Shown in pieces: positions 769 to 64,000 of a stretch of 64,000 nucleotides of DNA. This DNA comes from Escherichia phage vB_EcoM_FB: sequence record MT682711.1; one strand, written 5' to 3'. Numbering within the stretch: position 1 is the first letter of the stretch; each line of letters begins with the position of its first letter. A program made the translations under genes and the position numbers. The notes under the pieces were generated by a model that was given only the letters and a program-made list of their open reading frames with translations, was not told the DNA's origin and made no database searches.

Positions 769-1728
769 TTATTTTTCGAAAGGACGAATTAAATGATGAT
801 TGTCTTGGAATCGCTTGATGTAATCATTTTCACCCAGAGATTTATACATATTCACTACGGCTTGATAGTTTTCCCACGCGTATTCGCGGAACCATCCGGA
901 AGTGATAGAGGTGCACACTTTCTCAAGAGCCATATAAAAACTTAACGACGGTGAAATATTGAAGTCGTTAGGAACCTGTGAACGTTCTAGGGCCAGGACA
1001 CAAGTTTCTTCGTATACGCCAGCCAGTTTAATAGCTTCAGGCAAAGCTTCAAACTTCTCACGAGAGGTCATGACTTCAGACCCATCTTTCATATAAAAGG
1101 TATATGCAGGGCGTCCAGCCAATGCCACAGCTTCATGGATAGAGTCGTGGTCCAGAGTATAAATTGTGTCATTAAAGAATGAAGATTTGTTAACGTCCAG
1201 TTTAGGATGAGAATAGCTCAACGTTTCTTTCTGACGTTGCAGCATGATTTCCTGGAGCTCTTCGTTCAGGGTTACACCTTTATTACGAAGGTATTTGATG
1301 TGGGACATAGTTTTCAAGAAGAACGGATTATTCTTCAGGAAACGATGAGAGGTTTTAATAGCCAGACAGATATCAGGAGTAGCCCAATAGAAACCTGTCA
1401 TACGATCTTTCTTAATATGATTTTCAGCATATTTCAGAAGACGATAACTTGAGGTGAAGTCTTCGTCTTGAAGCTCACCAGTGATTTCTCGTACGTTAGT
1501 CAAAGCGCGAACGATATAAGCTTCAAAATAGGTTTCTTTACCGTTGTGCATACATTTGAAAGCCTGGACATCAGGGTTGTCTACGTGTACATGGGCACCA
1601 AACATCTGTGCTTTAAAATTATTCCATGACCCCTGGTCGGCAATGAAATCCCAATCAGAATTTTCGATATACTTACTTTCAATAAGACCTGCGTTATGTA
1701 ATGCACGAGAACCGATAACTAGCATCAT
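769..1728 (-). CDS. hypothetical protein (319 aa), possible Pol-beta-superfamily nucleotidyltransferase
   Basis: ORF track; N-terminus VIGSRALHNAGLIESKYIENSDWDFIA fits a G-S...D-x-D nucleotidyltransferase signature by eye only. Confidence 0.6.
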   Translation of the reverse strand: MMLVIGSRALHNAGLIESKYIENSDWDFIADQGSWNNFKAQMFGAHVHVDNPDVQAFKCMHNGKETYFEAYIVRALTNVREITGELQDEDFTSSYRLLKYAENHIKKDRMTGFYWATPDICLAIKTSHRFLKNNPFFLKTMSHIKYLRNKGVTLNEELQEIMLQRQKETLSYSHPKLDVNKSSFFNDTIYTLDHDSIHEAVALAGRPAYTFYMKDGSEVMTSREKFEALPEAIKLAGVYEETCVLALERSQVPNDFNISPSLSFYMALEKVCTSITSGWFREYAWENYQAVVNMYKSLGENDYIKRFQDNHHLIRPFEK

Positions 1729-1749
1729 ATTATTTTCCTCAGAATTAAA

Positions 1750-1986
1750 TTAAATGTCCCAGCGGGCGCTATCATATTCATCCCATAGAGCTTCATGGGA
1801 GTTACAAACGATAGGAGCAATGACTCCGTTAATATCTTCGTTGTAAGGGCAGATAGTACAAAATGCATCTTCGAAACGAACACCGTAATCAGACTTCTTA
1901 TACGCAATGTCAAAAATCTTTTTAAACTTTTCACGAGTAATGGTTTTAGCAACAACTTCAGTACCAATACTTTCGTAATAAATCAT
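1750..1986 (-). CDS. hypothetical small protein (78 aa)
   Basis: ORF track; GAGGAG RBS upstream; preferred over overlapping low-complexity frame 1725..1967. Confidence 0.5.
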   Translation of the reverse strand: MIYYESIGTEVVAKTITREKFKKIFDIAYKKSDYGVRFEDAFCTICPYNEDINGVIAPIVCNSHEALWDEYDSARWDI

Positions 1987-1996
1987 GGTTATCTCC

Positions 1997-2197
1997 TCAG
2001 ATAGGACCGTAAAGGTATGTCCAACGTTTAACGAAAGAAACTACTTCTTCCAAGGTATCGAAGACCTCTGTAGTGCCTGGAACGCCATCGCCACTGATGG
2101 TTACTTTAATGCCATCTGAAACTTCCTGGAGGTTAATCTCCAGTTGGTTGGCTTTGGCTTCGTTCAGAACTTTGATTAATTCGTTTGCGATAGACAT
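1997..2197 (-). CDS. hypothetical small acidic protein (66 aa)
   Basis: ORF track; AGGAG RBS upstream. Confidence 0.55.
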   Translation of the reverse strand: MSIANELIKVLNEAKANQLEINLQEVSDGIKVTISGDGVPGTTEVFDTLEEVVSFVKRWTYLYGPI

Positions 2198-2261
2198 TTT
2201 TATTCTCCTGTTCTGATAACGTGATTGTCATCAGTTGATAAGAGAATAGTACCACAGTTTT

Positions 2262-2591
2262 CTAGAGTTGTACATCACTTCTGCAATATTCTAAAAATAA
2301 TTTATTGTTGTCAACTGTATCCCAACGTCGCCAAGATGGATTCCAGACCAAAGCGTTGTCACCACAATCATTGAGCTTAAAATGGTCATAGTACATAGCT
2401 ATATGTCTAGTCTCGTCACCAGAGAACCCTAGTATAGGCTCGCCGTGGGTGTGATACATATGATGGTGCATTGAGAGGTCGCATTTATAAAACATTTCAC
2501 GTTTACCGCGAATGAACAAGAATGCTTGTCCGTTCATATAAAATTCTTTATCTGTTTTTAAAAGATATTTGAATACTGAATCTTTGTGCAT
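2262..2591 (-). CDS. hypothetical His-rich protein (109 aa)
   Basis: ORF track; GGAGG RBS; HHHMYHTHGE cluster. Confidence 0.55.
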   Translation of the reverse strand: MHKDSVFKYLLKTDKEFYMNGQAFLFIRGKREMFYKCDLSMHHHMYHTHGEPILGFSGDETRHIAMYYDHFKLNDCGDNALVWNPSWRRWDTVDNNKLFLEYCRSDVQL

Positions 2592-2628
2592 AAGTCCTCC
2601 TTCACATCCGTGTGATTATTATATCCTA

Positions 2629-2853
2629 TTAACAGCTACTTGGATACCAGATTTTACCATCAGCTTGAGCAACGAAGGTACGACCAGCTTCTTCACCATA
2701 ACAAGAGCTATTCAGCCAATCTTCGAGACGAACTTCGCCGTCATAATCATCTAGCTCAACACCAAAATCCTGAGCAGAAGCCATATCTTTTACTTTCTTA
2801 TACAGTGCAGCCAGTTCAAGAGCAGCTTTTTCTAATTCATTAATATCAGACAT
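2629..2853 (-). CDS. small acidic protein, paralog 1 of a 4-member tandem family (74 aa)
   Basis: ORF-track frame 2629..3003 trimmed to the ATG at 2853 (Met51, AGGAAA RBS) because the upstream part overlaps the next paralog; C-terminus ...GKIWYPSSC. Confidence 0.6.
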   Translation of the reverse strand: MSDINELEKAALELAALYKKVKDMASAQDFGVELDDYDGEVRLEDWLNSSCYGEEAGRTFVAQADGKIWYPSSC

Positions 2854-2863
2854 TTTTATTTCC

Positions 2864-3076
2864 TTAGCAAGACATAGAAGAAGTAAACCAGAAACCATCG
2901 CCATCTGGGATACCGTAATCATCACGGACCCATTCGTAATCATCATATTCCGGATTCTTTGGAGAAATGTATTGTCCACGACCGGAAACATGGAACTCTT
3001 CACCTGTTTCGTCAGCCACGGACTGGCCTTTACGTACTAATTCGTGGATTTGTTTTTCAATTTCATCAATAGTCAT
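2864..3076 (-). CDS. small acidic protein, paralog 2 (70 aa)
   Basis: ORF track; RBS AAGGTAA; C-terminus GFWFTSSMSC. Confidence 0.65.
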   Translation of the reverse strand: MTIDEIEKQIHELVRKGQSVADETGEEFHVSGRGQYISPKNPEYDDYEWVRDDYGIPDGDGFWFTSSMSC

Positions 3077-3085
3077 TTTATTACC

Positions 3086-3367
3086 TTAACATTCAGAAGA
3101 AGAGGACACCCATCCACCTTTTTCAAGGTCTGTGGTGTAGTCGTGGGTGTTAACGATAGCGTATTGAGGCTCACCGTATTCTTCCCAGTGGGCAAGGTCA
3201 GCTTTCAAGGCGCCAGGAGAATAATAGTCACCGCCCATACCGCGAGCAGGGTATATATTAAAATGAGTCTCATATTTGTTTGCAATTTCCTCGGCGTGGC
3301 GAATAGCCTTATGGATGTCATTTACTGCGTTGGCCAGTTCTTTATTTTTACTGTAATCATTCATCAT
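3086..3367 (-). CDS. small acidic protein, paralog 3 (93 aa)
   Basis: ORF track; RBS AAGGAAA; C-terminus GGWVSSSSEC. Confidence 0.65.
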   Translation of the reverse strand: MMNDYSKNKELANAVNDIHKAIRHAEEIANKYETHFNIYPARGMGGDYYSPGALKADLAHWEEYGEPQYAIVNTHDYTTDLEKGGWVSSSSEC

Positions 3368-3376
3368 AACGTTTCC

Positions 3377-3667
3377 TTAGCACAATGCCGAAGAGGAGAC
3401 CCAAGCACCAACTGTAACGACGCCGTTTTCAACTTCACCGCCGTTGTTTTCAATTTCATCTTTAAACCACTGGGAGCATTCATAGCCGATAGGGTAATAT
3501 GTACGACCTGAACCATAATCGCCCGTACCGAATTGAATACCATACTTATCAGCAATTACTTCACATTCATGTTCGATGGTATCCACTTTATTCAGAAGAG
3601 CATAGATAGCTTTTTCTGCAGATTTCTCGTCGTTGTGTTCTGGGATTTCAATTTCAATTTTATTCAT
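3377..3667 (-). CDS. small acidic protein, paralog 4 (96 aa)
   Basis: ORF track; RBS AGGAAT; C-terminus GAWVSSSALC. Confidence 0.65.
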   Translation of the reverse strand: MNKIEIEIPEHNDEKSAEKAIYALLNKVDTIEHECEVIADKYGIQFGTGDYGSGRTYYPIGYECSQWFKDEIENNGGEVENGVVTVGAWVSSSALC

Positions 3668-4017
3668 GATTTACATTCCTTAATAAAGGTTTCAAGGTCA
3701 TTACATTTGGTTTGTTTTACATACTCATTATACTTAGCCATAGCTAAAGCATAACTCTTTTTACGTGGCTTGTTTAATTTATTAGTTTGGACAACATCAA
3801 AGACTAATGGGATAAAGTATCCTACTAAAGATGGAACCCAAATCCACGCAAGACTCATATCTTCAAACGGATGACGAGGCATACCATTAATAATCCCGCC
3901 AACAAGGAATCCTATTATTCCTGCAATCATACTAGTAGCAATGCCGAGGAATAAGGAAATAGAGATATCGTAATCTTCTAATGCATAACCTGGATCGGTT
4001 TTACTAGGCTTATACAT
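3664..4017 (-). CDS. hypothetical membrane protein (two hydrophobic segments)
   Basis: ORF-track frame 3664..4035 trimmed to second ATG (4017), which has an AAGAGG RBS; hydrophobic stretches IATSMIAGIIGFLVGGII and IWVPSLVGYFIPLVF. Confidence 0.55.
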   Translation of the reverse strand: MYKPSKTDPGYALEDYDISISLFLGIATSMIAGIIGFLVGGIINGMPRHPFEDMSLAWIWVPSLVGYFIPLVFDVVQTNKLNKPRKKSYALAMAKYNEYVKQTKCNDLETFIKECKS

Positions 4018-4546
4018 TTTGAACCTCTTTAGCATATTCGCGGCATTCTTTAATAAAACGATTAAGCTTGCGTTGCTGTTTACGACTTTCTAACGTGTAT
4101 TCGTCGGCCAAAACAATAAGCTCGTCTTTATCGTAATTTTTAATATCAGAGTAAGATGGACGACGGTCGACCATACCAAAATGGTCACCATTTTCTAACA
4201 TCAAATAACATACTAAATGATAATCATCATCTGCATTAGTAAGCTGCTTATAATCACTCGGTTCGTTTAAAGCATATACCGAATATCTTACTCCGGCGAA
4301 TTCCACTCGTTGAATAGCCAGATTTACGTCAATAATTTCTAAAGCTTCTGCAAAAGAAAGGTCTTCAGCTAAAGCAAAGATAAAGGGTAATTTAGTAGTA
4401 TAGCCACGGTTATTTGTTCTGCTTAAGAAATCGTTAGAATAACCTAGGTCCTGGCGAATTCTATAAAGAACCGCATTAGTTTCATGGGAAAGACCACTAT
4501 GCTTAAACCAATCAACATTTGATATCAGGTCATCATATAAACCCAT
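4010..4546 (-). CDS. hypothetical protein (178 aa)
   Basis: ORF-track frame 4010..4651 trimmed to ATG at 4546 (GAGAGGAG RBS); the longer N-terminus would run through the hairpin at 4569-4586. Confidence 0.55.
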   Translation of the reverse strand: MGLYDDLISNVDWFKHSGLSHETNAVLYRIRQDLGYSNDFLSRTNNRGYTTKLPFIFALAEDLSFAEALEIIDVNLAIQRVEFAGVRYSVYALNEPSDYKQLTNADDDYHLVCYLMLENGDHFGMVDRRPSYSDIKNYDKDELIVLADEYTLESRKQQRKLNRFIKECREYAKEVQNV

Positions 4547-4595
4547 AATATTCTCCTCTCCTCCAAATGGGGAGACCGAAGTCTCCCGGGTAACA

Positions 4596-5189
4596 TTACT
4601 TAAGTGAATTGATGTAGTCGTCGATATCAGCAGAAGTCGTATCCATTCCAACTTGTGGGCCTTTAAACGTTTCTACACGCATCAAGGTATCTTCAATATC
4701 AATCTTAGTCAGTGCAGCGATTTCAACAACATCATCGGCAGTAGCAATACCAAGGGCAGCCATATTACGAGTTTCACGGATATACTCGAGCTTAACGGCT
4801 AGTTCCTGACGAGAGTCATCAAGTTCCTTGACCTTAAGCTTAATTTCATTACGCATTTCAACATAATCATCAGCTTTCTTACGAAGTTGAGTAGCCGTAC
4901 GACGATAAAGGAGGCCCAGTTTAGCATGCACCTGAACATCGGCGCCTTCTTTAATCAGCTTACGAATTTCACGTTCTTTAGAACTAGCCAGTTGGTCCTT
5001 TTCATTAGCGAGTTCACGAATACGTTTTTCTTCATTCACAGACTTAACATGGGCAGTCTGGAGCTCAGTGATTTTATCAATCAGAGTAGAAGCAGCTTTA
5101 GTATACTGGTCTTCGATTGACAGGTTCTGAGCCATTGCGGTACCCAGTTTAGAACGGATGAATTCAACGATTTTCTTTAAAGTGTTCAT
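4596..5189 (-). CDS. hypothetical coiled-coil protein (197 aa)
   Basis: ORF track; charged heptad-like helices; downstream of the early promoter at 5232-5261. Confidence 0.6.
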
Positions 5190-5231
5190 AGTATTTCCTT
5201 CAGTTGGTTAAGATTTATAATCCATGAGGAC

Positions 5232-5261
5232 ATTATACCCTGTCCTCTGAGGTTTGTAAAC
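5232..5261 (-). promoter_or_regulatory. T4-type early promoter with -10 in a hairpin loop
   Basis: minus strand GTTTAC-18bp-TATAAT; inverted repeat GAGGACA/TGTCCTC flanks the -10. Confidence 0.5.
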
Positions 5262-5264
5262 ATT

Positions 5265-5663
5265 TTATTTCATTTTTGCGAGGCAAATTTCATTGGCTTC
5301 CCATTGAGCTTGCTTAATAATAGCTTTGGATACAGGAGCCCTTTGGCCATAAGTTTTTGACGTTGAGAGAACAATACATTTGTTTGCCTCATTATGCCAG
5401 CCCCGTGATTTTTCGCCATGAGTACCTTTAACTACAGCTGACACCTCAACAGAGCAACCACCATCAGAAATCTTGGTTTCGACAATCCATTCATTTCTTT
5501 CGACAGCTTCAAGTTCTAATCTAGTTTTTTCTTCATACATGGCGGCCCAATCAGTTTTTGCCAGGTTGAAAGTGAGAGCTTTCTCCAATTCTTTGGCAGC
5601 TTTTTGTTGTTCAGGCGTTAATGAATTGTACAACTCTTGCATTTCTTTATCTTCGATATTCAT
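5265..5663 (-). CDS. hypothetical protein (132 aa)
   Basis: ORF track; GAGGAG RBS. Confidence 0.6.
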   Translation of the reverse strand: MNIEDKEMQELYNSLTPEQQKAAKELEKALTFNLAKTDWAAMYEEKTRLELEAVERNEWIVETKISDGGCSVEVSAVVKGTHGEKSRGWHNEANKCIVLSTSKTYGQRAPVSKAIIKQAQWEANEICLAKMK

Positions 5664-5688
5664 TATGTTCTCCTCAAATTATGGGCTC

Positions 5689-5718
5689 ATAATATCTTAA
5701 TCATGAGCCCATGTAAAC
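5689..5718 (-). promoter_or_regulatory. T4-type early promoter inside a 10-bp inverted repeat
   Basis: minus strand GTTTAC-18bp-TATTAT; inverted repeat ATGGGCTCAT/ATGAGCCCAT. Confidence 0.5.
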
Positions 5719-5720
5719 AA

Positions 5721-5984
5721 TTATTTCATATTATTGAAATAATCTTCCGCATCAAAATCGTTATCATGATAAACTTTGGTAGACGATTTAGCATAACCTT
5801 CAGCTGAGAACATATTAACCACAACCTTAATTGTATACCATTGTCCGTCTTCATTACCCATTACAGCATACGTTTCATATACCGGATGTTCAGGACCGAT
5901 AACCTTAATATCGTTAACAGTAGCACCAAATTCTTCAGGAACGCATTTCATAAAGAAATTAAACAATTCACCGTAATTATCCAT
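5721..5984 (-). CDS. hypothetical protein (87 aa)
   Basis: ORF-track frame 5721..5999 trimmed to ATG at 5984 with GGAGAG RBS in the conserved leader. Confidence 0.55.
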   Translation of the reverse strand: MDNYGELFNFFMKCVPEEFGATVNDIKVIGPEHPVYETYAVMGNEDGQWYTIKVVVNMFSAEGYAKSSTKVYHDNDFDAEDYFNNMK

Positions 5985-6019
5985 TTTACTCTCCTTCACT
6001 CTGTTGTTTTGATAGGTCT

Positions 6020-6048
6020 ATAGTATCATGTTTAAAGGAGGTGTAAAC
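6020..6048 (-). promoter_or_regulatory. T4-type early promoter with conserved leader
   Basis: minus strand GTTTAC-17bp-TACTAT followed by AGACCTATCAAAACAACAGAGTGAA. Confidence 0.55.
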
Positions 6049-6070
6049 ATCTTTTTAAACTTTTTAGAAA

Positions 6071-6099
6071 CAAAAAAGGCCCAACCTTTCGGAAGGGCC
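6071..6099 (-). terminator. rho-independent terminator (minus-strand sense)
   Basis: hairpin GGCCC..GGGCC followed on the minus strand by TTTTTTG; exact copy at 51253-51281. Confidence 0.55.
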
Positions 6100-6156
6100 T
6101 TTAACCTAGGGTAACCTTGTCGGGGTTTCACCTGCTAGGCAAGTGTTTGTACGATA

Positions 6157-6240
6157 CGCCGGGATTCGAACCCGGTTATTAAGTAGTTGACGCTACTTAA
6201 TATTTTAAAAGGCCATATCTCGACCATATCCGAACGTTCC
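6157..6240 (-). ncRNA. tRNA-like or small stable RNA candidate
   Basis: canonical T-arm CCGGG-TTCGAAT-CCCGG on minus strand preceded by a 6-bp hairpin; no matching acceptor or anticodon arm found. Confidence 0.3.
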
Positions 6241-6409
6241 GTCAAAAACGCTACTCGGCTTACGGCAAAGATATTTCCTCGAATCGATAATTCTGTGCGC
6301 CGTTTAAGCTGTGATATAAGGGGTCATTAACAAAACATAAAGATTTATTAATGTCGGTCCTTAAACAGGGAACTTCAGTCCGACGACTTACCGGTAGCGA
6401 CCCGGTTTC

Positions 6410-6760
6410 TTAATATTCTTTTAAAGAATCAATATATTCACGGCGTTTACGCCACAAATCAATTGCTTCATACGCGGATTCAGCATTTCGAATTAGCCGG
6501 CATTTATGTAAAGACTTATGATTTTGATATTGTGTAGATAACGGAATTGTATCTAAAAGGTCTTTACGATCAAAATATTCGTAACCATCTAAACCAAATG
6601 AACGATTTTTGAGAAATTGCCAATGACCATATTCGTTTTCGACATAAACATAATCTGCATGCTGATAAAGCAAATTAATTACACGTTCAGAAATAACAGT
6701 ATCATTATGATTAAAATAGAATGTTAAATCATGAACTACTAAATAAACATTACCTTTCAT
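6410..6760 (-). CDS. hypothetical protein (116 aa) inside the tRNA cluster
   Basis: ORF track; GAGGA RBS 16 nt downstream of the tRNA-Arg 3' end. Confidence 0.5.
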   Translation of the reverse strand: MKGNVYLVVHDLTFYFNHNDTVISERVINLLYQHADYVYVENEYGHWQFLKNRSFGLDGYEYFDRKDLLDTIPLSTQYQNHKSLHKCRLIRNAESAYEAIDLWRKRREYIDSLKEY

Positions 6761-6778
6761 ATTTTCCTCACTTATAAT

Positions 6779-6854
6779 TGGTCGAGGCAGTAGGGATCGA
6801 ACCTACGACCTAGGACTTAGAAGGTCCTTGCTCTTCCTTCTGAGCTATGCCCCG
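6779..6854 (-). tRNA. tRNA-Arg (anticodon TCT)
   Basis: hand-folded cloverleaf: acceptor CGGGGCA/TGCCTCG, D-stem GCTC/GAGC, anticodon stem AGGAC/GTCCT with loop CTTCTAA, T-arm GTAGG-TTCGATC-CCTAC, encoded CCA. Confidence 0.85.
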
Positions 6855-6857
6855 TAA

Positions 6858-7526
6858 TTAAAATTTCATTTTTCGACCTTTAAACCATCCTTCTGGAATT
6901 GGGTCAGTTTTCTTAATACGTTTAGAAACTTTTTCATCTAATGAATGAATCCACATCATACCAAATTGGGAATTCTTTTCGCCCTGTTGATGTTTATTTC
7001 TGGCGTGAGATTCTTTCATTTTATTAATAGTTTCAGGAGTATGATGCTTATTTAAAAATCTGCTATTATTTAAAAATTTTTCCCTGTATTCAGGAGTTGA
7101 CCACAAGCGTTTAAATACATTTGAACCATGTTTACGATATTTTTCTTGAAGTAAAATATCACTTTTAAAACGTGACTTAAACGATTTAGCTCCTTTTAAA
7201 CTAGCGTCTTTCTTCTGGTTTAGCATCCCAGGAATATTTATATGGTCCCAACCACCTTCACCACCTAATTTCAAATTATAAACATCAGGGCGCTTTAAAA
7301 ACTCTTCAGTCACAATATTCTTTTCTGACTCAAACATAGAGGTTTTATCGTCAAAGAACTCTCTAATATTTCTTTAGAAAAATTTTCTATACCATACTTA
7401 TCTTGGGCTCTTTTTAATAATTTACCAGAACCCATATATCCATCATCTAAATTTTCGGTAGAATGAGCGCCTATATAGATTTTTATTATTAATTTTATTT
7501 GTTATTTTATAAATGTAATGGAACAT
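6858..7526 (-). pseudogene. GIY-YIG homing endonuclease disrupted by two frameshifts
   Basis: three frames together rebuild a protein collinear with the intact paralog at 12737-13249 ([15 protein letters not shown] / [26 protein letters not shown]... / ...NLKLGGEGG...); AGGAG RBS before the first ATG. Confidence 0.6.
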
Positions 7527-7567
7527 AAATATCTCCTATTTCTAAGAGTATTTATGTTCCCAAAATA

Positions 7568-7638
7568 TGGCCCTGGGTGGAATCGAACCACCATCCAGCG
7601 ATTATGAGTCGCTCGCTTGACCGTCCAGCTACAGGGCC
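7568..7638 (-). tRNA. tRNA with CAT anticodon (Ile2-type as in T4, or Met)
   Basis: acceptor GGCCCTG/CAGGGCC perfect, anticodon stem AGCGA/TCGCT with loop CTCATAA, T-arm GGTGG-TTCGATT-CCACC; CCA not encoded. Confidence 0.8.
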
Positions 7639-7733
7639 TTAATTCTATTATGAAAGGCTCTTTGAGGGAAGAACCTTTGGTAATAGAGGGTACTTATTAA
7701 TAATAACACACAACTCTTAAAGCATATTACTTG

Positions 7734-8114
7734 TTAACCTTCATCAACAATAGTGTGGGTATTGGCATTAACAATTTGCCACCAGTCGAAACGATTAGAA
7801 CCGTATTGAGGCTTATTCTCGTTTTCTTTAATGATATCACGCAGTTCATCTTCAGTCGCGGCCTTTGCGATTAAGTCGGCATAACCGCCACGGGGATAAT
7901 AGTTATCACCAGCAAAGAGTAAAAAGTTTGTTTTAATATTCTTGAATTCTTCAAGAGTAATAACTGTTCCAGATGGTTGGACAATATCTACGTAACTATA
8001 TCCTAATTTCTGGGCTTCATTTACTGCTTCAAGCAGGGTGTCATGGGCCCATCCAATTTGACAATCCGGTTTTTCAGATGGGTTGGCTTGATAATCTGCG
8101 TACACTTTATACAT
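7734..8114 (-). CDS. hypothetical protein (126 aa)
   Basis: ORF-track frame 7734..8162 trimmed to ATG at 8114 with AGGTGA RBS. Confidence 0.55.
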   Translation of the reverse strand: MYKVYADYQANPSEKPDCQIGWAHDTLLEAVNEAQKLGYSYVDIVQPSGTVITLEEFKNIKTNFLLFAGDNYYPRGGYADLIAKAATEDELRDIIKENENKPQYGSNRFDWWQIVNANTHTIVDEG

Positions 8115-8115
8115 T

Positions 8116-8301
8116 TTACTCACCTTTAGAGATTTTATCCATAACGAAAGAGATTGAACCAATTAAAAATGCCACTACTAAAGAGATTGTATTCTCAGAA
8201 GTTGTAAGCAAATCCAACATGAATCCTGCAAACATACTAAAACTAAAAGTGGTAATAGCAATAAGGGCAGTAGCATTTCTAATTAATTCACAACGTTTCA
8301 T
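8116..8301 (-). CDS. small membrane protein (61 aa)
   Basis: ORF-track frame trimmed to the ATG after the GGAG RBS in the conserved leader; two hydrophobic segments. Confidence 0.5.
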   Translation of the reverse strand: MKRCELIRNATALIAITTFSFSMFAGFMLDLLTTSENTISLVVAFLIGSISFVMDKISKGE

Positions 8302-8337
8302 TTTATTCTCCAATCACTCATTTGTTTTGATAGGGCT

Positions 8338-8367
8338 ATAGTATCATCACTAAAGCCCGTTGTAAAC
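8338..8367 (-). promoter_or_regulatory. T4-type early promoter with conserved leader
   Basis: minus strand GTTTAC-18bp-TACTAT then AGCCCTATCAAAACA; partial inverted repeat GGGCT/AGCCC. Confidence 0.5.
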
Positions 8368-8369
8368 AA

Positions 8370-8630
8370 TTATTTTAGATAAATTGCATATTTTTTATAG
8401 CCAGCTGTCTCGTGGCGCAACCCTTTGTCATTAGCAAAGCGTTCAATATTATTAATTTGGTTTTGGTCGAGTTCTGAAATATCAAATACAAAAAAGTTTC
8501 TCTTATTGCCTAAAGTTACGTGATTAGTCAAATCGATGTTATAGAGATGATTTATATTATCAATCACGGTCTTAACAGATTTGTTAATTTTTACTTCCTC
8601 ATTAAGAATAAATTCTTGATAAGTTTTCAT
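8370..8630 (-). CDS. internal protein (ipI-locus) with capsid-targeting N-terminus
   Basis: N-terminus MKTYQEFILNE resembles the T4 internal-protein targeting peptide with an L-x-E protease site (recalled from T4); lies next to 57B as ipI does in T4. Confidence 0.6.
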   Translation of the reverse strand: MKTYQEFILNEEVKINKSVKTVIDNINHLYNIDLTNHVTLGNKRNFFVFDISELDQNQINNIERFANDKGLRHETAGYKKYAIYLK

Positions 8631-8667
8631 TTTGGGTTCCGTTTGGTTAGTTTGTTTTGATAGGTCT

Positions 8668-8696
8668 ATAGTATCATATTTATAGACCTTGTAAAC
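8668..8696 (-). promoter_or_regulatory. T4-type early promoter inside an inverted repeat
   Basis: minus strand GTTTAC-17bp-TACTAT; inverted repeat GGTCTATA/TATAGACC; leader GACCTATCAAAACA. Confidence 0.55.
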
Positions 8697-8703
8697 AACT
8701 TTT

Positions 8704-9381
<678 letters not shown>

Positions 9382-9389
<8 letters not shown>

Positions 9390-10143
9390 TTTTATTTCCT
9401 AATAATTTATCAATAGTAGTGTATAGTTCAGAAAGGGTTCCGTTATTTTCAACAACAACGTCACCAGGTAAAATTGGTAGACCCGCTTCAGTAATGTGCG
9501 AGTCTTGTACTTGACCGGTATCAGCGCGAACTACATGAATAATCGTAGCACCCATCGCCCTGAGCGAATCAATTTCATGTGTTTGACGAACATCAGGTAC
9601 GACATAGTATTTCGCATCAGAGTATATTTTATCAAAATAGTCTAAAGCGAATAACTTAACCCAATACATTTTATCAAATCGGTTAACAATAATATCAGTC
9701 CCAAGGGTCTGCATGAGACGACGTACTGACCAATTGTTATTTTTATTTATTACTTCAAACAGTTGGTCTTTTGTTTCTTCAGACAGATACTGGACTGGGG
9801 TAAGACCATAATGATATGCGGTACGAACATCCATTCCTGGAATAGGAAGGATATTATTCAGTTTGACAATAGCATTTTCAAAGATATCAATCACATCATA
9901 TGGTTTTAAAGGAATGATTTCTTCACGGTCGTAACCGATACCTTCAAAACAGTTAAAATCTAGTTTAGGCATGTAACTACGGTCGAATACAGGGTCATCA
10001 GAGATGTATTCATAGGCTTCAGCCAGATACTTTTTAATAGGACCTGCGAGCTGAAATTTTACCGAATCCATATTTTCGATTACATAGTTAGCAACGGTAT
10101 CCTTACCGCTACGTTTGATTCCTACAATTGATATTAGTTTCAT
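9382..10143 (-). CDS. 1: deoxynucleoside monophosphate kinase gp1
   Basis: P-loop GIKRSGKDT; conserved blocks WSVRRLMQ.LGTD, MYWVKLFALDY, AMGAT.IHVVR match T4 gp1 as recalled. Confidence 0.9.
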
Positions 10144-10733
10144 TATTTTCTCATAGATGGATGCATAGACATACGAGCCACTCGTTGTTCGGCATACGAA
10201 TCAATTTGTGGACGACCTGTAACTATTGTACCATCTATTTCTACAGCAAACGATTTGAAGTTGAATGTTGCTGTGGCGATTATCGCCGGGTCAGAATCCT
10301 CTTTATAAGAGTACTGGATTTCCGAGAGGTCGGATGGCCAACCACCGTAGTAATGAATGCTCATTACGATTTTCTGTTTGTTGTTATCAAGGATGTGGAG
10401 GGTGATAGCTTCCGGTTGACCTTTAGGATGCCAGGCTTCTGAATCATGGGTTACATAGTTGTTTAATGACAACATCCACTTATAAACGTCAAGCCACGAT
10501 TTCAATTCACGGTCCACAAGAAAGTTCACAATCAATGGGTCGAATTCTACAGTAGAACCTGGCAGCTTAGCACGATGTATACCCTGGGTCGATCCTGGGA
10601 CGTCTGAGACCGGAATATGGATACCAGGTAGTGTTACATCTTGCACGTTTAATTTGAATGCCTGCGTCATTCCTGCGTCACTAACCTCTAAGATAAAGTT
10701 AGTAGTGTTAGTTTGGTTAAATAAACCGTTCAT
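10143..10733 (-). CDS. 3: tail completion / sheath stabiliser gp3
   Basis: synteny 1-3-2-4; start uncertain (Met22 would give 175 aa, near T4's 176). Confidence 0.75.
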   Translation of the reverse strand: MNGLFNQTNTTNFILEVSDAGMTQAFKLNVQDVTLPGIHIPVSDVPGSTQGIHRAKLPGSTVEFDPLIVNFLVDRELKSWLDVYKWMLSLNNYVTHDSEAWHPKGQPEAITLHILDNNKQKIVMSIHYYGGWPSDLSEIQYSYKEDSDPAIIATATFNFKSFAVEIDGTIVTGRPQIDSYAEQRVARMSMHPSMRK

Positions 10734-10815
10734 AGGGTTCCTATATTGCTTAAGTCCTAGCCAGTGTATAATGGTCCTAGGTCTGTTCCATTCAATAACT
10801 GGCTGGGATAATAGA

Positions 10816-11652
10816 TTAAGAATTCTTCCATACTTTCTGAGCTGAGTAACGCTTACCTTTAGACATGAACTGTTGGAGAGGCATCATTACGACATTAGCC
10901 CAATCAGATGGTTTTATCTCTACTAAAGGTCCCTTAATATTTCCAGGGATATAAGCCTTAATCATCACGTCGGCGCCAGCGAATCCTTTTACCTTACTCC
11001 AATCGATTTTTAATTTAGTCGAGTTCGTAATGGTAGGCGTACTCGCGTATTGCTTCAGCAATTCTTCCAGAAATTGTTGTCGTGCTTTAGGTGGGATATA
11101 GTGTAAGTTCAGCCCGTACATTAAATTATGCTTACCTAGCCCAAGATAAATGATTAATGGATATTTGTCCCAGTACGGTAGGGTATCCTTATGTTTGGCA
11201 TCATAGATATACGCATAAAGCTTACCAGGAGATGGTTTAGATACCTGGTGCCCACGAATTCCTTTCTTTAATGTTTCTGTAAACCATTTAGCCGATTTAT
11301 TGTTTACAGCGGCGCCCTCGTTAGCAATCTTATCACGAATACTCTTTCTAAAACTATTCACCAAAATTAATTGACGTTCTGCTTTGGTTAATTTATTGCC
11401 AGGTTTCTTCTGAAGTTTTTCAACCTGTACAGCAGTTTTAATTCGACTCGAGTATCGAGACATCGCAGATGTAAAGCTAGAATACTTGATGCCTTTATCT
11501 TCAGCGAATTTCTTAGCCGAAACACCTTTAGCCTTAGCGTTGGCATATTCAACGCCTAAAGTTATCCATTGTTGTTCTGAACGAGTAGGCTTGGAACCTT
11601 TTGTAGTTTCAGTAGCCTCGTTGATGTAAGAAAATATACTCATCCTTTCCAT
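10816..11652 (-). CDS. 2: DNA end protector gp2
   Basis: 278 aa, synteny with T4 gp2. Confidence 0.8.
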
Positions 11653-12089
11653 CCTAATTTTTTCAGTGAGTTTTCGGTAATCAATCTGAAATTAATTCCC
11701 ATTTTATCTGCTGTAGCTTTAGCAGCTTTCCATTTATCTTTATTTACACTCCATGTATAATGTTCGTTGATATATCTCTTTTTAGCAGCTGTAGTCATTT
11801 TAGCAGGCGCCGCTGGAGGATGGGTCTCTTTAAAAGGTTTGACTTCGAAAAAGAATTGTTGACCATTGTCGAACTTCACCCAGAAGTCCATAAAATACCG
11901 ACGTTTCTTTCCATCAGCGTTACTAAAATATGGAATCACAACCTCTTCCGAGTTCCACTGGACGACATTAGGATGGTTGTCAAGCCAACGCATAAGCCAT
12001 GCTTCCCAAGAGGAACGATATTGGATTTTCTTCCAATCACCTTTATATTTTTGTAAGTTTGTAGGTTTAAATTTCCCTGAGTAGGCCAT
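11640..12089 (-). CDS. 4: head completion protein gp4
   Basis: 149 aa, synteny with T4 gp4. Confidence 0.8.
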
Positions 12090-54497: not shown

Positions 54498-55663
54498 GTT
54501 CAAAAACTATGCAACGTGAAGGCTTTCCTAATATTAGTATACGCCTTTACGAAGATTATGACGCCTGGTTAGAGCATCGTTTTGTTGAACTAGGCGCGAC
54601 ATTTACTACTCTAACAATGCGAGATGGGCTTTACGGTAGTAATGAAGGGTTGCTTCAGTTTTATGATGCAAAGAACCTTCATACTAAAATGGATGGTGAG
54701 CAGATTATTCAAATTTCTGTTAAGAATGCTAACTCTGAACGTACCCAATCAAGAATTTATGGAAGTAAACACTTTGCTGTAGGAGTGGATTCGAAGGGCG
54801 ACAATATCATAACAATACAACTCGCCCCAATCCACTTTTTAGAGAATCTTAAATTTAGTCGTATGTTCTTCCCGAGTGTTCAAGAAACATTAACTGAAAT
54901 GATTGGTGTTATTTATCAAGACCGTCCGCTTCTTGCTCCTCCTTTGAACGGGATAAACGTTTACGTTCCTAATGTTCCTTGGTGTGATTCAATGGACCGT
55001 TATATGGAATTTGTACGAGAAGTAGGTATGGCCGTTGAATCTGATAAATTTGTATTTGTCTGGGAAGATATAGATGGTATTTCTATCATGGACTACGAAT
55101 TTATGGTTAACCAAGAGCCTATTAATTTTGTAGTGGGTGAGCCGCGATTAATAGGTCAATACGTTCAAGATATGGATACACCTATCGCATTTGATTTTGA
55201 ATGGTTAACTAAAGCCAACCAACATTCCAGAAAACCATATGAAAACGCTACTGTATACGCCCACTCTTTCTTAGACAAAAACGCCACACGAATTACTTTT
55301 GGTGACGGGCAAAACAGTATATTGGTTTCTCGCTCCGGTGGATATTCTGATTATACCTACCGAAACGGTTTTGAAGAAGCTGATAGATTAGTTACTATGG
55401 CCCAATACGATGGATACGCTCATTGTAAGGTATATGGTAACTTTGAACTAACTCCAGGCGATAAGATTAATTTCTATGACCCTAAAAACCAATTCCAGTA
55501 CGATTTTTATGTAGACGAAGTTATTCATGAAGTGAGTAACAATACATCAATTACAAACCTTTATATGTTTACTAATGGTAAGCCTATTAAGATTGAAGAA
55601 CCGCCGAAGGTTAAAAATGAACTTAAAACTGATACTCCCGATCAAGAAAATAACGCTGGGTGA
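54494..55663 (+). CDS. 27: baseplate hub protein gp27
   Basis: 389 aa (T4 391), synteny. Confidence 0.85.
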
Positions 55664-56144
55664 CAAAGAGATTTCCATTCCTAAATTGGGTCTTAAACAC
55701 CAGAAATTGGTTAAAGATGAAAAGGACCCTTACAAGGCCCTCTATATGACAATGGAATCCATTTGTAAAGGACTGTCTGCAGCAGAAACAGATTTTGCTG
55801 CTTTACACCTTTTAGAATTCAACGGACGATTAAAAGAAAAAGTAACTAAAGATGGATTCACATATAATTTAAATGACCTTTATATTTGCCAACGACTTGA
55901 ATTCCAGTTCCAAGGTAAAACATTTAAATTTAAATCACACGAACCATTTCAAACATTTGGTCCTGTTGATAGTGTACTACAATCTCTTTATCTTGGTGAT
56001 GATGTACCAGATTTTCTGGATATGCCTGCCTTTGTTGCTACATGGGCCGACGATATAACTTCTACTGTAGCTATCCCTGGTCCTAATGGTCCTATCAAAG
56101 GATTGCTTAAAATCATGGATATCTTAAATGAAGAACGAATCTAA
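55617..56144 (+). CDS. 28: baseplate hub distal protein gp28
   Basis: ATG at 55617 after GAAGG gives 176 aa (T4 177). Confidence 0.75.
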
Positions 56145-57864: not shown

Positions 57865-57872
57865 GATTAATA

Positions 57873-59902: not shown

Positions 59903-59914
59903 AGGTTGCTATAA

Positions 59915-59943
59915 CAAAAAAGGAGAGCGTACGCTCTCCTTTA
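59915..59943. terminator. bidirectional terminator between gene 54 and the alt-downstream gene
   Basis: perfect palindrome GGAGAGCGTACGCTCTCC flanked by A-run and T-run. Confidence 0.7.
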
Positions 59944-59948
59944 GGGGT

Positions 59949-60239
59949 TTATTTACGGAACGAAATGAAACCTGCTGCAGTCATTAGTGGTTGCTTTTTA
60001 ACAAACACCGTAACTGAAATAGGAGCTTCAGATTCGAGCTGTCCTGTCACTACACCATTAAAGATATTTTCAGTTTGTTCCGGCTGAGAAAAGTTCTCAA
60101 CAGGACGGATATCAAATTGCTTATCTTCACCGAAAACTCGACGCAATTCATTACCAACTGCACTGTCAAACTCTTCGGAAGCAGGGATAACGTTTTCAAC
60201 TACCAGTTCTTGACCATTAAAACGGAATGCAGATTTCAT
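59949..60239 (-). CDS. small hypothetical protein downstream of alt (alt.-1-like position)
   Basis: ORF track, 96 aa. Confidence 0.5.
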   Translation of the reverse strand: MKSAFRFNGQELVVENVIPASEEFDSAVGNELRRVFGEDKQFDIRPVENFSQPEQTENIFNGVVTGQLESEAPISVTVFVKKQPLMTAAGFISFRK

Positions 60240-60296
60240 AATGTTCTCCTCATGTTTGTGTAAGGTAATAGTAACACCATCCTTGGCGTTTGTAAA

Positions 60297-62348
60297 CTAC
60301 CCTTGTACAAATTTATATTGGAGAGCGTCGATATCTATACAAGAAGCTAACAAGCCAAGACCTCTGTCTGAGTTCTTTTTCTTCTCATTAGAAACAAATG
60401 AATCAAAAGAAAGCTCACCACCATCTTTATAGACAACGAGTTCTCCTGTTTCCATTAGGGCATCACCGTCGTATACTACAGCTTCATTAAGTTCATCTGC
60501 AGTCATTACTTCGGCTTGAATAAACTTATTGTTAGAACGAGTAGTCCCGTTGTTATATGAGGCATCTGTAATTTTATTGATTTTAACCATCAACCCTCTA
60601 GGAAGAATTACTTCCATTTCGTTAGAAGGGGCTAGGTCTCCACCAGGTAAAACGACATTTACTTTATTAGCACCAGTAATGGCCCAACCGATACCTACTA
60701 AGGTATCTTTAACTGAATATACCAAGCCTTCATCAGATTTATCTAAAGCAACATCTCGACGCTTTTCATCAGGTAAAACACCAACACCAGAATCGGTCAT
60801 CCATGTACCAAAAATATTTGGATAAAGTGATGTTGATACAAAGTTCCTGAAATAGAATACTTTGTTTTTAACCATAGCCAGGTAAATATCAGGAATCATT
60901 CGTTGAGAACGATAAAGCGTGATACCTTCCGGAAGTTGTTCACCATTTTCAAAAGCAGAATCTAAGTTATTGATAGCTTTTTCTATCTCTTCATTAGTCA
61001 AAATACTGGTTCTTGTATTAGGGTCGCGGATTCCTAAAAGAACATTATTCATATCTTCGTAACCGGAGCCAACGTATTCACGAATACCACGCTTCTGTGC
61101 TGGTGTATAACGAGATACGTCTTTATTTTCTACAATAGAATGTAATTGCCAACCCGCGGTAAGAGCATAAACACGCAGTTCGCGCTGAATAATTTTGGTC
61201 TTTATAGCATTCCAAGAATTTTCGGCTAACTCTATGGCTTCGTGATAACCTAAGTGAGAATGCCGGGCCATTAGTTTTTGAAGCCAAGGGCCTTTATATT
61301 CTTCGATGACATCATCAACCACTGAAGCATAATTTTCTAGAGCTTTTACTGAAGTCACATTTAATCCATGTAATTTCTCAAAAGCTCTCATTTTTATGTC
61401 GGTATTAATTTCTTCCATTTTATCTTCTGGAATAAGAAGGTTGTCTTTAAACGACATACCGCCGGTATTAGCACTAATGGTATTTTCTAAAGCCAAGAAA
61501 GAATTAGAAATAACCTTTATTTCATTTGCTTCCGGCATTAAAGGACCTGTAGCAGGTTTATTCAATTCGACAGCATTAGACTCAAATTTCTTAAACATTG
61601 GAGTTTCGAAACGAGATGATTCTAAGGATTGCGACATAGCAATAGCACGACGTGAAATCTTAGTCTTGGTAATGACAGCCTTATCAGTACGTTTCTCTTC
61701 AACTTTAGCTATACTTGCCGAGACGGCTTCGGCCTTACTTACGGCCTGGCCAGTTTCCTTAGAAACATAAACTTCGCCAACTTTAGACTCAACCTTAGTA
61801 TAAAGCTCGGCATCAATTTCAGGCATACCCTTAATATCTTCAATATTAGTACCACGACGTACTAAAAGAACATAGGTATGTTTTCCGGTGAATTGGTACA
61901 TGGCATCAACAACTTTAAACTTACCACCAGTACGAGCCATAGCTAAACGAGCTAATACACGCTGAACAGTAGGACCCTTACCTTTCATTTTCTTGGTAGG
62001 GAACCGGAAAAGAACTGCATCCATTTTAAGTTTGTTTACTTGTTCGTATACAGTATCAAAAATGGTATTCAGCGTACCAAGTGGGTCAGAACCTAACCCA
62101 CCTTTCAACTCGGCTGGGCTACCCTTAGCAGACAAACTCATCAAAATAACATGAACATATTTGTCTCCGGGCTTAACCATTTTAATAGCGTCTCCTTGAG
62201 ACGCATAAGATACCATACGAGCAACCAGGTTATCATTACCTGGCGCTTTAATAGAGAAAATCTGTGGGATACCGGAACCTGGTTTAAGATTTATTACTGG
62301 ATAGTTTTTATCGGAATCACTATCAAAAACCTCGTTTAAATTTTCCAT
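60297..62348 (-). CDS. alt: Alt ADP-ribosyltransferase (virion-packaged)
   Basis: 683 aa (T4 Alt 682); R-S-E ART motifs (R in LYRSQRM, NFVSTSL, IQAEVMT); location after gene 54. Confidence 0.85.
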   Translation of the reverse strand: MENLNEVFDSDSDKNYPVINLKPGSGIPQIFSIKAPGNDNLVARMVSYASQGDAIKMVKPGDKYVHVILMSLSAKGSPAELKGGLGSDPLGTLNTIFDTVYEQVNKLKMDAVLFRFPTKKMKGKGPTVQRVLARLAMARTGGKFKVVDAMYQFTGKHTYVLLVRRGTNIEDIKGMPEIDAELYTKVESKVGEVYVSKETGQAVSKAEAVSASIAKVEEKRTDKAVITKTKISRRAIAMSQSLESSRFETPMFKKFESNAVELNKPATGPLMPEANEIKVISNSFLALENTISANTGGMSFKDNLLIPEDKMEEINTDIKMRAFEKLHGLNVTSVKALENYASVVDDVIEEYKGPWLQKLMARHSHLGYHEAIELAENSWNAIKTKIIQRELRVYALTAGWQLHSIVENKDVSRYTPAQKRGIREYVGSGYEDMNNVLLGIRDPNTRTSILTNEEIEKAINNLDSAFENGEQLPEGITLYRSQRMIPDIYLAMVKNKVFYFRNFVSTSLYPNIFGTWMTDSGVGVLPDEKRRDVALDKSDEGLVYSVKDTLVGIGWAITGANKVNVVLPGGDLAPSNEMEVILPRGLMVKINKITDASYNNGTTRSNNKFIQAEVMTADELNEAVVYDGDALMETGELVVYKDGGELSFDSFVSNEKKKNSDRGLGLLASCIDIDALQYKFVQG

Positions 62349-62351
62349 TAT

Positions 62352-64000
62352 TTACCCTTGGATGAATTTTTCTGGGATGTCATAGAGGTCTATGCATGAA
62401 GCCAAAAGAGGCAGTACATCAAACCGTGTAGATTTAACAAATGAATCAAAAGATACGGGGCTTTCGGAAGTATCGAAGTCATCTTGATATACGACCAACT
62501 CGCCGGTTTCCATTAGTACGTCACCATCATATACCACAGATTCTTGAAGCTCATCTGTTGTCATAACTTCAGCTTGGATGAGTTTTGTATTACTAGATGT
62601 TGTTCCATCATTATTAGAAGCATCTGTTATTTTATTAACTTTGACCATTAATCCACGCGGTAGAATAACTTCGGCTTCAGTTGCTATTCCGAGATTTCCT
62701 GGATATACGACATTAACTTTATGAGCCCCATCAATGGCCCATCCTATTTGAACCTTAACGTAATCGGGATTTTCCTTATACGCTCTTATTTCATTAGGAT
62801 TAATAGTTATTCCTTCTTCATTTTTATCAACTGTCAATTCGTTGCGAACTTCCGGTTCTAAAAGACCAATACCAGCGTGCGTAACACCAAAACGTCCGAA
62901 AATTATAGGAGTTAAAGAAGTAGATACAAAATTTCTAAAATAAAACACTTTATTTTTAACTAGTGCTTCGTATATAGGAGCAGTCATACTCTGGGCACGA
63001 TAAACTGTAATGCCTTCCGGTATACGGTCACCATTTTCAAAAGCTGAATCTAAATTATTTACAGCGGATTCGATATCTTTTTCGCTCATAACCTCATAGT
63101 TCTGAGGATTATAACGTCCTAAAAGAAGATTATTTATGTCTGTATATCCTGAACCACAATATTCTCTGATGCCGCGCTTTTGTGATGGGGTATATTTAGA
63201 GCCCTCACGAGCAATAGTAATATCGACCATAATACCACCACCTACACCAGCAAAACTATACACACGTTTTTTAATGAACTTAGTCTTGGCTGCTTTCCAC
63301 TTGGACTCGGTTAATTCATTCCAGACGTCGTCAGGTTGGCCTTTACGAGTTCTGTTATGGATAGCCAGCCACTCGCCTTTATATTCTTCGAAAATGGTAT
63401 TAATGGTAGAGGCATATTTTTCCAGGGCTTTAACAGATGTCAAAGGTTCATTTTTGATAGCTGTAAGAATTTTCTCTTTAATTTTCTCTTGGATTTCACC
63501 AATACCGTGAAGTGGGAACAATTTATAGTCGTAATGCAATTCTTCAGCAGTGCCTTCAGCTACTATATTAGCAACCTTATTTTTAGCCGCAGGAGAATTG
63601 TTATTAGTGACCATTTCCTGGGCCTCAGGGATTAATGGAACTGTTGCCGGTTTATTAAAATCTACTGCAGTAGCTTCATATTTCTTAAACAGCTCACTTT
63701 CATTACGATAAGATTCTAACGATTGACTTGCCGCAATAGCACGTCGAGAAATCTTAGTCTTGGTTATAACCATTTTATCAGTGCGACGTTCTTCAACCTT
63801 AGCAATACTACCGGCGATAGCAGTTTCTTTAGTAACCTGCACGCCTTCTTTTTTAGAAATATAAACTTCACCGACATCAGAATCTACCTTAGTATACAAT
63901 TCAGCATTAATTCCAGGCATACCTTTGATATCTTCTATATCAGCTTGTTTACGAACTACCAGGATGTAAGTATGTTTACCGGTAAATTGGTACATAGCCG
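62352..64000 (-). CDS. second Alt-like ADP-ribosyltransferase paralog, partial
   Basis: collinear with alt from its MYQFTGKHTY block to the C-terminus, same ART motifs; N-terminus lies beyond the window end. Confidence 0.8.
   Translation of the reverse strand, partial: AMYQFTGKHTYILVVRKQADIEDIKGMPGINAELYTKVDSDVGEVYISKKEGVQVTKETAIAGSIAKVEERRTDKMVITKTKISRRAIAASQSLESYRNESELFKKYEATAVDFNKPATVPLIPEAQEMVTNNNSPAAKNKVANIVAEGTAEELHYDYKLFPLHGIGEIQEKIKEKILTAIKNEPLTSVKALEKYASTINTIFEEYKGEWLAIHNRTRKGQPDDVWNELTESKWKAAKTKFIKKRVYSFAGVGGGIMVDITIAREGSKYTPSQKRGIREYCGSGYTDINNLLLGRYNPQNYEVMSEKDIESAVNNLDSAFENGDRIPEGITVYRAQSMTAPIYEALVKNKVFYFRNFVSTSLTPIIFGRFGVTHAGIGLLEPEVRNELTVDKNEEGITINPNEIRAYKENPDYVKVQIGWAIDGAHKVNVVYPGNLGIATEAEVILPRGLMVKVNKITDASNNDGTTSSNTKLIQAEVMTTDELQESVVYDGDVLMETGELVVYQDDFDTSESPVSFDSFVKSTRFDVLPLLASCIDLYDIPEKFIQG

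Follow-up and report, generated by a model that had tools for sequence, protein, structure and literature searches.

Two tandem, diverged alt genes for ADP-ribosyltransferases of the Alt family in Escherichia phage vB_EcoM_FB

We analysed 64,000 nucleotides of Escherichia phage vB_EcoM_FB (sequence record MT682711.1), a stretch referred to here as the window, and focused on the two alt genes that lie at its end on the minus strand. Both encode members of the Alt family of ADP-ribosyltransferases (ARTs). The first, altA (60297..62348, minus strand), encodes a complete Alt paralogue of 683 amino acids, here copy A; it lies on the side of the neighbouring gene alt.-3 and has an ART domain of the T4 Alt type. 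The second, altB (62352..64000, minus strand), encodes copy B, with an ART domain of the class found in the ligase-side alt gene of phage T2. The window ends inside altB and leaves its 3' 1.65 kb visible, 548 codons and the stop. A six-frame list of open reading frames (ORFs) gives copy B as 62352..63995 (minus strand), 547 amino acids beginning with MYQFTGKHTY. The codon before this methionine is GCT (Ala), and the frame stays open, with no stop, up to the last base of the window. The methionine is therefore internal, and the gene runs on past the edge.

How closely are the two copies related? BLASTP aligns them with 300 identities over 556 positions (54%, E = 0), and the alignment is collinear from residue 149 of copy A to both C-termini. 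Their DNA can be aligned as direct repeats, 72-79% identical and 2058-2094 nt apart. These results bear out the original prediction, made from the sequence without database searches, of two tandem, diverged Alt paralogues on the same strand, one complete at 683 amino acids and one cut by the window edge, collinear from the MYQFTGKHTY block to the C-terminus. The genes are separated by 3 nt. Their junction (62349..62362, minus strand) consists of the last two altB codons, CAA GGG, the stop TAA, the spacer ATA and the altA start codon ATG. Within the final altB codons, AAGGG resembles a Shine-Dalgarno sequence and sits 6 nt ahead of the altA ATG, and from this arrangement we infer that translation of altA may be coupled to that of altB. 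In the window, the baseplate genes gp29, gp48 and gp54 lie on the plus strand and alt.-3, altA and altB on the minus strand. The same gene order at the alt locus is found in T4, Bp7, QL01, T2 and IME540; the ligase side of the locus falls outside the 64-kb window.

Both proteins match Pfam family PF03496 (ADPrib_exo_Tox) far above its curated cut-off of 23.4 bits. Copy A scores 102 bits (E 3.6e-29, residues 377-615) and copy B 125.8 bits (E 1.8e-36). PHROG 802, 'Alt-like RNA polymerase ADP-ribosyltransferase', matches copy A over 1-682 (E 1.3e-254) and copy B over profile positions 149-674 (E 4.3e-182). The catalytic arginine is R480 in copy A (LYRSQ) and R334 in copy B (VYRAQ; partial numbering here and below). 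The S-T-S motif lies at S505-T-S507 and S359-T-S361, respectively, and the E-x-E motif at E577-M-E579 and E441-A-E443. Order and spacing of these elements are as expected in both proteins, and ILPRG follows directly after the catalytic E-x-E of each (E[MA]EVILPRG). NFVSTSL, IQAEVMT and RGLMVK.NKITDAS had been put forward as conserved ART motifs. All three strings are indeed present in both copies, but IQAEVMT is not catalytic: it sits about 30 residues past the catalytic Glu pair. RGLMVK directly follows E-x-E, and NFVSTSL is the one quoted string that holds a catalytic element, S-T-S. Loss of catalytic residues had been named as a possible objection to two enzymes; R, S-T-S and E-x-E are intact in both copies.

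The three elements are kept across the 13 Alt proteins that we compared, and the exceptions concern S-T-S. A search with the canonical FVSTS pattern gave no match in the PSD2002 ligase-side copy (631 amino acids). Bp7 alt', the orthologue of copy A (6398..8452 of the compared Bp7 stretch), reads S-T-A in the NAD-binding motif where copy A reads S-T-S.

E-x-E, as opposed to Q-x-E, is the arginine-specific form of ARTs. Both copies have E-x-E and not Q-x-E. A profile of eight Alt proteins, run against the Protein Data Bank (PDB), matched the BECa toxin of C. perfringens (E 5e-6) and Certhrax (E 7e-4), and the alignment puts the Y-R and E-x-E of Alt on those of BECa. A single-sequence search of the PDB with copy A (phmmer) gave no match; only the Alt alignment profile reached the toxins. 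In T4 Alt, the mutation E577A led to loss of all ADP-ribosylation (PMC11404850). The motif in RefSeq T4 Alt is E574-M-E576, and the mutated residue falls in this same E-M-E; the published number fits the second Glu if counted from an ATG one codon upstream. The sequence evidence supports the assignment of copies A and B to the Alt-family ADP-ribosyltransferases, each with a complete catalytic motif.

Copy A can be divided into a propeptide (MENLNE/VF), an N-terminal module (about residues 1-265), a variable linker (266-415) and the ART core (416-615). T4 Alt begins with MELITE/LF, and the copy B protein of phage IME540 with MTEQLNE/VF. In the family, the propeptide motif is [L/I]-x-E followed by [V/L]-F; of 62 representatives, 53 have L or I at position 4 and 58 have E at position 6. 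A GenBank record of T4 alt states that '6 amino acids cleaved off' N-terminally, a post-translational event. [L/I]-x-E is the predicted prohead-protease site in copy A; for copy B, the putative site is known from relatives.

The N-terminal module, some 215-265 amino acids long, is presumed to mediate incorporation into the prohead. A profile search among 1.84 billion proteins retrieved 71 representatives, in which the module is always at the protein N-terminus and the proteins that carry it are mostly 600-712 amino acids long. A Pfam scan of 62 module-bearing proteins found an ART domain in 58 and other Pfam domains in none, and the idea that the module carries many kinds of effector domain was rejected on this count. 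A word-index search with the N-terminal alignment yielded nine proteins, truncated Alt fragments by sequence, and none with a different C-terminal domain. The module itself has no match in our local copy of Pfam, even at E values up to 10. Precomputed annotations of homologues in the database place a newer Pfam entry, PF26846, on the N-terminal part. A GNAT-like fold of the module is a lead and not a finding: neither membership in a GNAT sequence profile nor the canonical acetyl-CoA pyrophosphate loop (Q/R-x-x-G-x-G/A) was found. The loop in the module has the form K-x-x-G-x-[E/G/A] and ends in E more often than in any other residue (25/62).

By Megablast, the region falls within the genus Dhakavirus. 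Bp7 is 93.4% identical in nucleotide sequence over the whole 4.1 kb, and other members of the genus are 90-96% identical over about two-thirds of it. The nearest relative is IME540. A protein search returned a 446-residue IME540 protein that is 100% identical to the C-terminal part of copy A; it is only this long because the linear IME540 record ends inside the gene. With the end of that record joined to its start, the alignment to window positions 54001-64000 is free of gaps, at 97.73% nucleotide identity. The IME540 copy B gene is an intact ORF of 694 amino acids (MTEQLNEVFESEG...), and the 548 residues of copy B that the window shows match residues 147-694 of the IME540 protein without a single difference. 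An alt.1-like ORF and the DNA ligase gene are found upstream of the IME540 gene, so that the nearest relative has two alt copies, not three. A disrupted N-terminus of copy B, the other objection foreseen, is not seen as far as relatives show. Bp7 alt and alt', the IME540 pair, and alta and altb of JS10 and IME08 are direct orthologues in the same order and with the same spacing. Identity is 95% between copy A and Bp7 alt' and 97% between copy B and Bp7 alt, and the alt loci of Bp7 and IME540 (97.7% nucleotide identity for the latter) show only point differences from that of vB_EcoM_FB.

Is either copy on its way out? We compared both with their orthologues by the Nei-Gojobori method. Copy A gives a dN/dS of 0.078 against Bp7 alt' (dS 0.35). 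Copy B gives 0.055 against Bp7 (dS 0.25), 0.030 against PSD2002 (dS 0.05) and 0.017 against QL01 (dS 0.18). Between copies A and B, dS is saturated. Both copies are under strong purifying selection, and neither looks like a decaying duplicate.

Tandem alt genes are not peculiar to this phage. GenBank and RefSeq annotate alt and alt' in Bp7, alta and altb in JS10 and IME08, and two genes for an 'Alt-like RNA polymerase ADP-ribosyltransferase' in WG01, IME281 and IME341. Three alt-like genes are annotated in QL01, MX01, AnYang, C6 and fDHCT2, and PSD2002 also has three; the three-gene loci of QL01 and PSD2002 span 5396..11656 and 1662..7774 of the compared stretches. The phage T2 record PV648364.1 holds two tandem alt genes, of 697 and 685 amino acids, between alt.1 and alt.-3. 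A tblastn survey with copy B gave 1804 separate matches in 1220 phage records, and 18 of 40 evenly sampled records had at least two. The two-copy arrangement, annotated in the Dhakavirus relatives and in T2, is thus already known; it is real but ordinary.

T4 is the exception rather than the baseline. The earlier statement that T4 carries one alt gene holds for intact genes, but T4 also keeps a remnant of a second one: its RefSeq record describes alt.-1 and alt.-2 as an old duplication of the first part of alt. Both were listed by Nolan et al. 2006 (PMC1524935), who also give a full-length duplicate of alt in phage 44RR. In a DNA comparison of T4 and T2 (2066..2451 of the compared T4 stretch, 6157..8214 of the T2 stretch), alt.-1 and alt.-2 match the first ~350 nt of the T2-type second alt gene, and T4 resumes about 20 nt before the stop of that gene. 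From this gap it follows that T4 lost some 1.7 kb of a second alt gene by deletion, and its single alt is a derived state.

Region-by-region identities among the 13 Alt proteins show a mosaic structure. The first ~148 residues are specific to genus and position. In copy A they are 91-98% identical to those of all Dhakavirus alt.-3-side copies, 67% to those of ligase-side copies and 36-40% to those of the T4 and T2 proteins. T2 has N-terminal modules of the kind found in Tequatrovirus, with 99% identity to T4 Alt and 36-42% to their Dhakavirus counterparts. The ART cores group differently from the N-termini, into at least five classes. Class I joins T4 Alt and copy A (about 81% core identity), class II the T2 ligase-side protein and copy B (95% amino acid identity in the core), and class III the alt.-3-side protein of T2 and those of QL01 and PSD2002 (57%). 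The QL01 middle copy represents class IV, and the PSD2002 ligase-side copy class V. Between classes, the cores differ by 60-67%; core identity between copies A and B is 62%. The alt.-3-side copies of QL01 and PSD2002 have N-termini 91-98% identical to that of copy A and ART cores 33-40% identical to copy A and to each other. T2, which shares the two-gene layout, has an alt.-3-side core only 39% identical to that of copy A.

How can copy B resemble a T2 protein in its core while its N-terminus belongs to another genus? The resemblance is confined to a cassette of altB at 62558..63236 (minus strand; residues ~255-480 of the partial protein), compared with the T2 ligase-side alt gene (4060..6153 of the compared T2 stretch). 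Most 30-codon windows in it are 90-96% identical in nucleotide sequence, against about 50-72% outside it, with the windows on either side mostly at about 50-65%. In sliding codon windows, third-position identity is 70-87% inside and 20-57% in the flanks, and over the final ~65 codons identity declines once more. The core has a regional dS of 0.41, whereas dS in the flanks is saturated. The neighbouring gene 54 is 62% identical to its T2 counterpart, with 39% third-position identity. This contrast between core and flanks indicates that a catalytic cassette of about 0.7 kb was probably exchanged fairly recently between a Tequatrovirus and a Dhakavirus lineage.

Where, then, do the two enzymes differ? 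We compared class I (copy A, Bp7 alt', T4 Alt) with class II (copy B and the corresponding proteins of Bp7, QL01, PSD2002 and T2), defining a class-discriminating position as one fixed within each class and different between them, and counting columns with insertions or deletions (indels) besides. From the start of the ART core to the catalytic Arg there are 8 such positions and 1 indel column; from Arg to S-T-S, 4 and 0; from S-T-S to E-x-E, 20 and 35; and after E-x-E, 3 and 0. Relative to copy A, copy B has a 10-residue insertion in the S-T-S to E-x-E segment, and the run just before E-x-E also differs, reading LAPSNEME in copy A and LGIATEAE in copy B. In ARTs of the VIP2, C3 and iota type this stretch holds the phosphate-nicotinamide (PN) and ARTT loops, which serve substrate recognition. 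Because the class differences concentrate between S-T-S and E-x-E, it is plausible, on this indirect ground, that copies A and B share the same chemistry and may act on different target sets.

We put a probability of about 80% on the reading that the alt region of this Dhakavirus, a T-even phage of the JS98/Bp7/IME540 type, holds two tandem, functional genes for capsid-packaged, injected mono-ADP-ribosyltransferases, of which copy B probably has overlapping but different targets. Each protein would be modular, with an [L/I]-x-E propeptide, the N-terminal module, a variable helical linker and a C-terminal R-S-ExE ART domain. A late promoter that precedes altB and lies beyond the window edge would drive both genes, and altA would be translated by coupling to altB. 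The growing prohead would then take in both proteins, its protease would trim them, and they would be injected together with the DNA. In the cell, each copy would use NAD+ to ADP-ribosylate arginines of host proteins. Copy A, with its T4-Alt-type domain, would most likely modify the targets of T4 Alt, RNA polymerase alpha among others, and copy B, with its T2-type domain and remodelled STS-ExE segment, most likely an overlapping but different set of host proteins. For late expression, packaging, cleavage, injection and arginine specificity we argue by homology to T4, whose Alt is packaged in the head and injected with the DNA according to the T4 literature.

As to the promoter, T4 has a terminator hairpin followed by TATAAATA just upstream of alt, and in Bp7 the ligase-side alt gene is preceded by the same hairpin and then by CATAAATA. 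No TATAAATA late-promoter box is present on either strand of window positions 60000-64000, and hence none that would serve copy A alone. Sigma-70-like matches in a consensus scan were at chance level (12 found, 12.8 expected).

Several points weigh against this reading. The Dhakavirus sequence CATAAATA matches the T4 late-promoter consensus at 7 of 8 positions and is a candidate promoter only. For the N-terminus and promoter of copy B, beyond the window edge, the only evidence comes from relatives with 93-98% nucleotide identity. An AlphaFold model of full-length copy A, built on a 22-sequence alignment, reached a pLDDT of 47.9, with values below 50 over residues 462-683; Foldseek with this low-confidence model found nothing at E <=0.001. 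With the ART domain below 50, the assignment of the PN and ARTT loops rests on motif positions and general knowledge of ARTs of the VIP2, C3 and iota type. Full-text literature searches found no experimental work on any second Alt copy or on Dhakavirus Alt proteins.

Could the duplication merely raise the dose of injected Alt, with both copies redundantly modifying the same targets? The two proteins do share their architecture and catalytic motif and are similar in length, 62% identity in the ART core could still permit the same substrates, and T4 lives with one copy. We nevertheless consider redundancy unlikely. With dS saturated between them, the copies are old and distinct, and their classes are conserved across genera, copy B with T2 and copy A with T4, yet differ from each other. 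The clustering of changes between S-T-S and E-x-E, together with the insertion in copy B, is not the pattern of a dose duplication, and relatives swap in further ART classes of only 33-40% identity.

It is far less probable still that one copy is decaying or non-catalytic, whether as a pseudogene in progress or as a purely structural head protein. T4 alt.-1 and alt.-2 show that a second alt copy can be lost, truncated Alt fragments occur in the databases, and the 5' end of copy B is outside the window. But both visible frames are open and without stops, dN/dS is 0.02-0.08, both catalytic triads of motifs are intact, and a full-length B-type gene is kept in IME540, Bp7, QL01, PSD2002 and T2. 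That the tandem is an artefact of assembly, a repeat collapsed or expanded, can practically be dismissed: no point in its favour was found, copies that are only 72-79% identical in DNA are too diverged to confuse an assembler, and the same two-gene layout recurs in many independently sequenced genomes.

T4 Alt (NP_049811) is a NAD+--arginine ADP-ribosyltransferase of 682 amino acids with the same domain order as copy A. Its gene occupies the same genome position, in the order ligase, alt.1, alt, ..., alt.-3, gene 54, and the protein shares with copy A the [L/I]xE propeptide and the R / S-T-S / E-M-E motif. T4 Alt is 61% identical to copy A overall; in the N-terminal 148 residues identity is only about 36-39%. 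To copy B it is 51% identical overall and 63% in the ART core. Unlike T4, with one intact alt gene and the alt.-1/alt.-2 stump, vB_EcoM_FB has two alt genes, the 5' end of copy B being known from relatives.

The toxins VIP2, iota Ia, CDTa, BECa and Certhrax belong to the same Pfam family, ADPrib_exo_Tox. These, however, are the enzymes of secreted binary toxins and act on eukaryotic actin or vinculin, whereas Alt is delivered into bacteria from the phage head and has a phage-specific N-terminal module. T4 ModA and ModB likewise belong to the R-S-E clade of ARTs in T-even phages and, according to the literature, have host transcription and translation proteins as targets, but they are about 200 amino acids long, expressed early and not packaged. 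BLASTP detects no significant similarity between ModA or ModB and copies A and B (E >1), a result that says nothing on specificity, and the 64-kb window contains no ModA or ModB homologue.

As a genome-scan finding, the tandem adds little, since both genes are already annotated as Alt-like in close relatives. What goes beyond annotation is the selection on both copies, the cassette exchange with T2, and the concentration of paralogue change in the presumed substrate-recognition segment. Textbooks use Alt to illustrate how an enzyme that enters the cell with the phage DNA reprogrammes the host, and knowledge of it comes mostly from T4, the exception. If the paralogues modify different host proteins, then this phage, others like it and T2 deliver a wider range of host-modifying enzymes than expected from T4. 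In that case, the exchange of catalytic cassettes between genera would be one way in which phages adapt to different hosts or defences.

A bolder view would see the alt locus of T-even phages as a polymorphic effector array, in which a fixed, conserved and genus-specific N-terminal packaging module, possibly GNAT-like, is combined with at least five classes of ART 'warhead' that recombination swaps onto it, across genera too, the copy B core shared with T2 being an example, so that each phage injects a different set of one to three ARTs with distinct targets, possibly defence proteins. We offer this tentatively and think it somewhat more likely to be wrong than right. If true, it would be the phage-head counterpart of bacterial polymorphic toxins.

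The alt.-3 homologue (59949..60239, minus strand; 96 amino acids) is a DUF5498 protein (Pfam PF17602, E 2.6e-34) in the position of alt.-3 in T4 and Bp7. Between the converging gene 54 (plus strand) and alt.-3 (minus strand) lies a terminator-like hairpin (59919..59942, minus strand), a pattern match only, with a 10-bp stem and T runs; it is likely a bidirectional terminator. The layout suggests that the transcription unit likely runs from the promoter through altB, altA and alt.-3 to this terminator, and alt.-3 probably shares a transcript with both alt genes. C-terminal extensions of the alt.-3 protein of T4 allow that phage to escape CmdTAC, a defence system that ADP-ribosylates mRNA (PMC11618068).

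Elsewhere in the window, the gp28-like ORF (55575..56144, plus strand) encodes 189 amino acids from its first ATG. The Bp7 annotation gives 175 amino acids (528 nt) and thereby points to an internal ATG as the probable true start.

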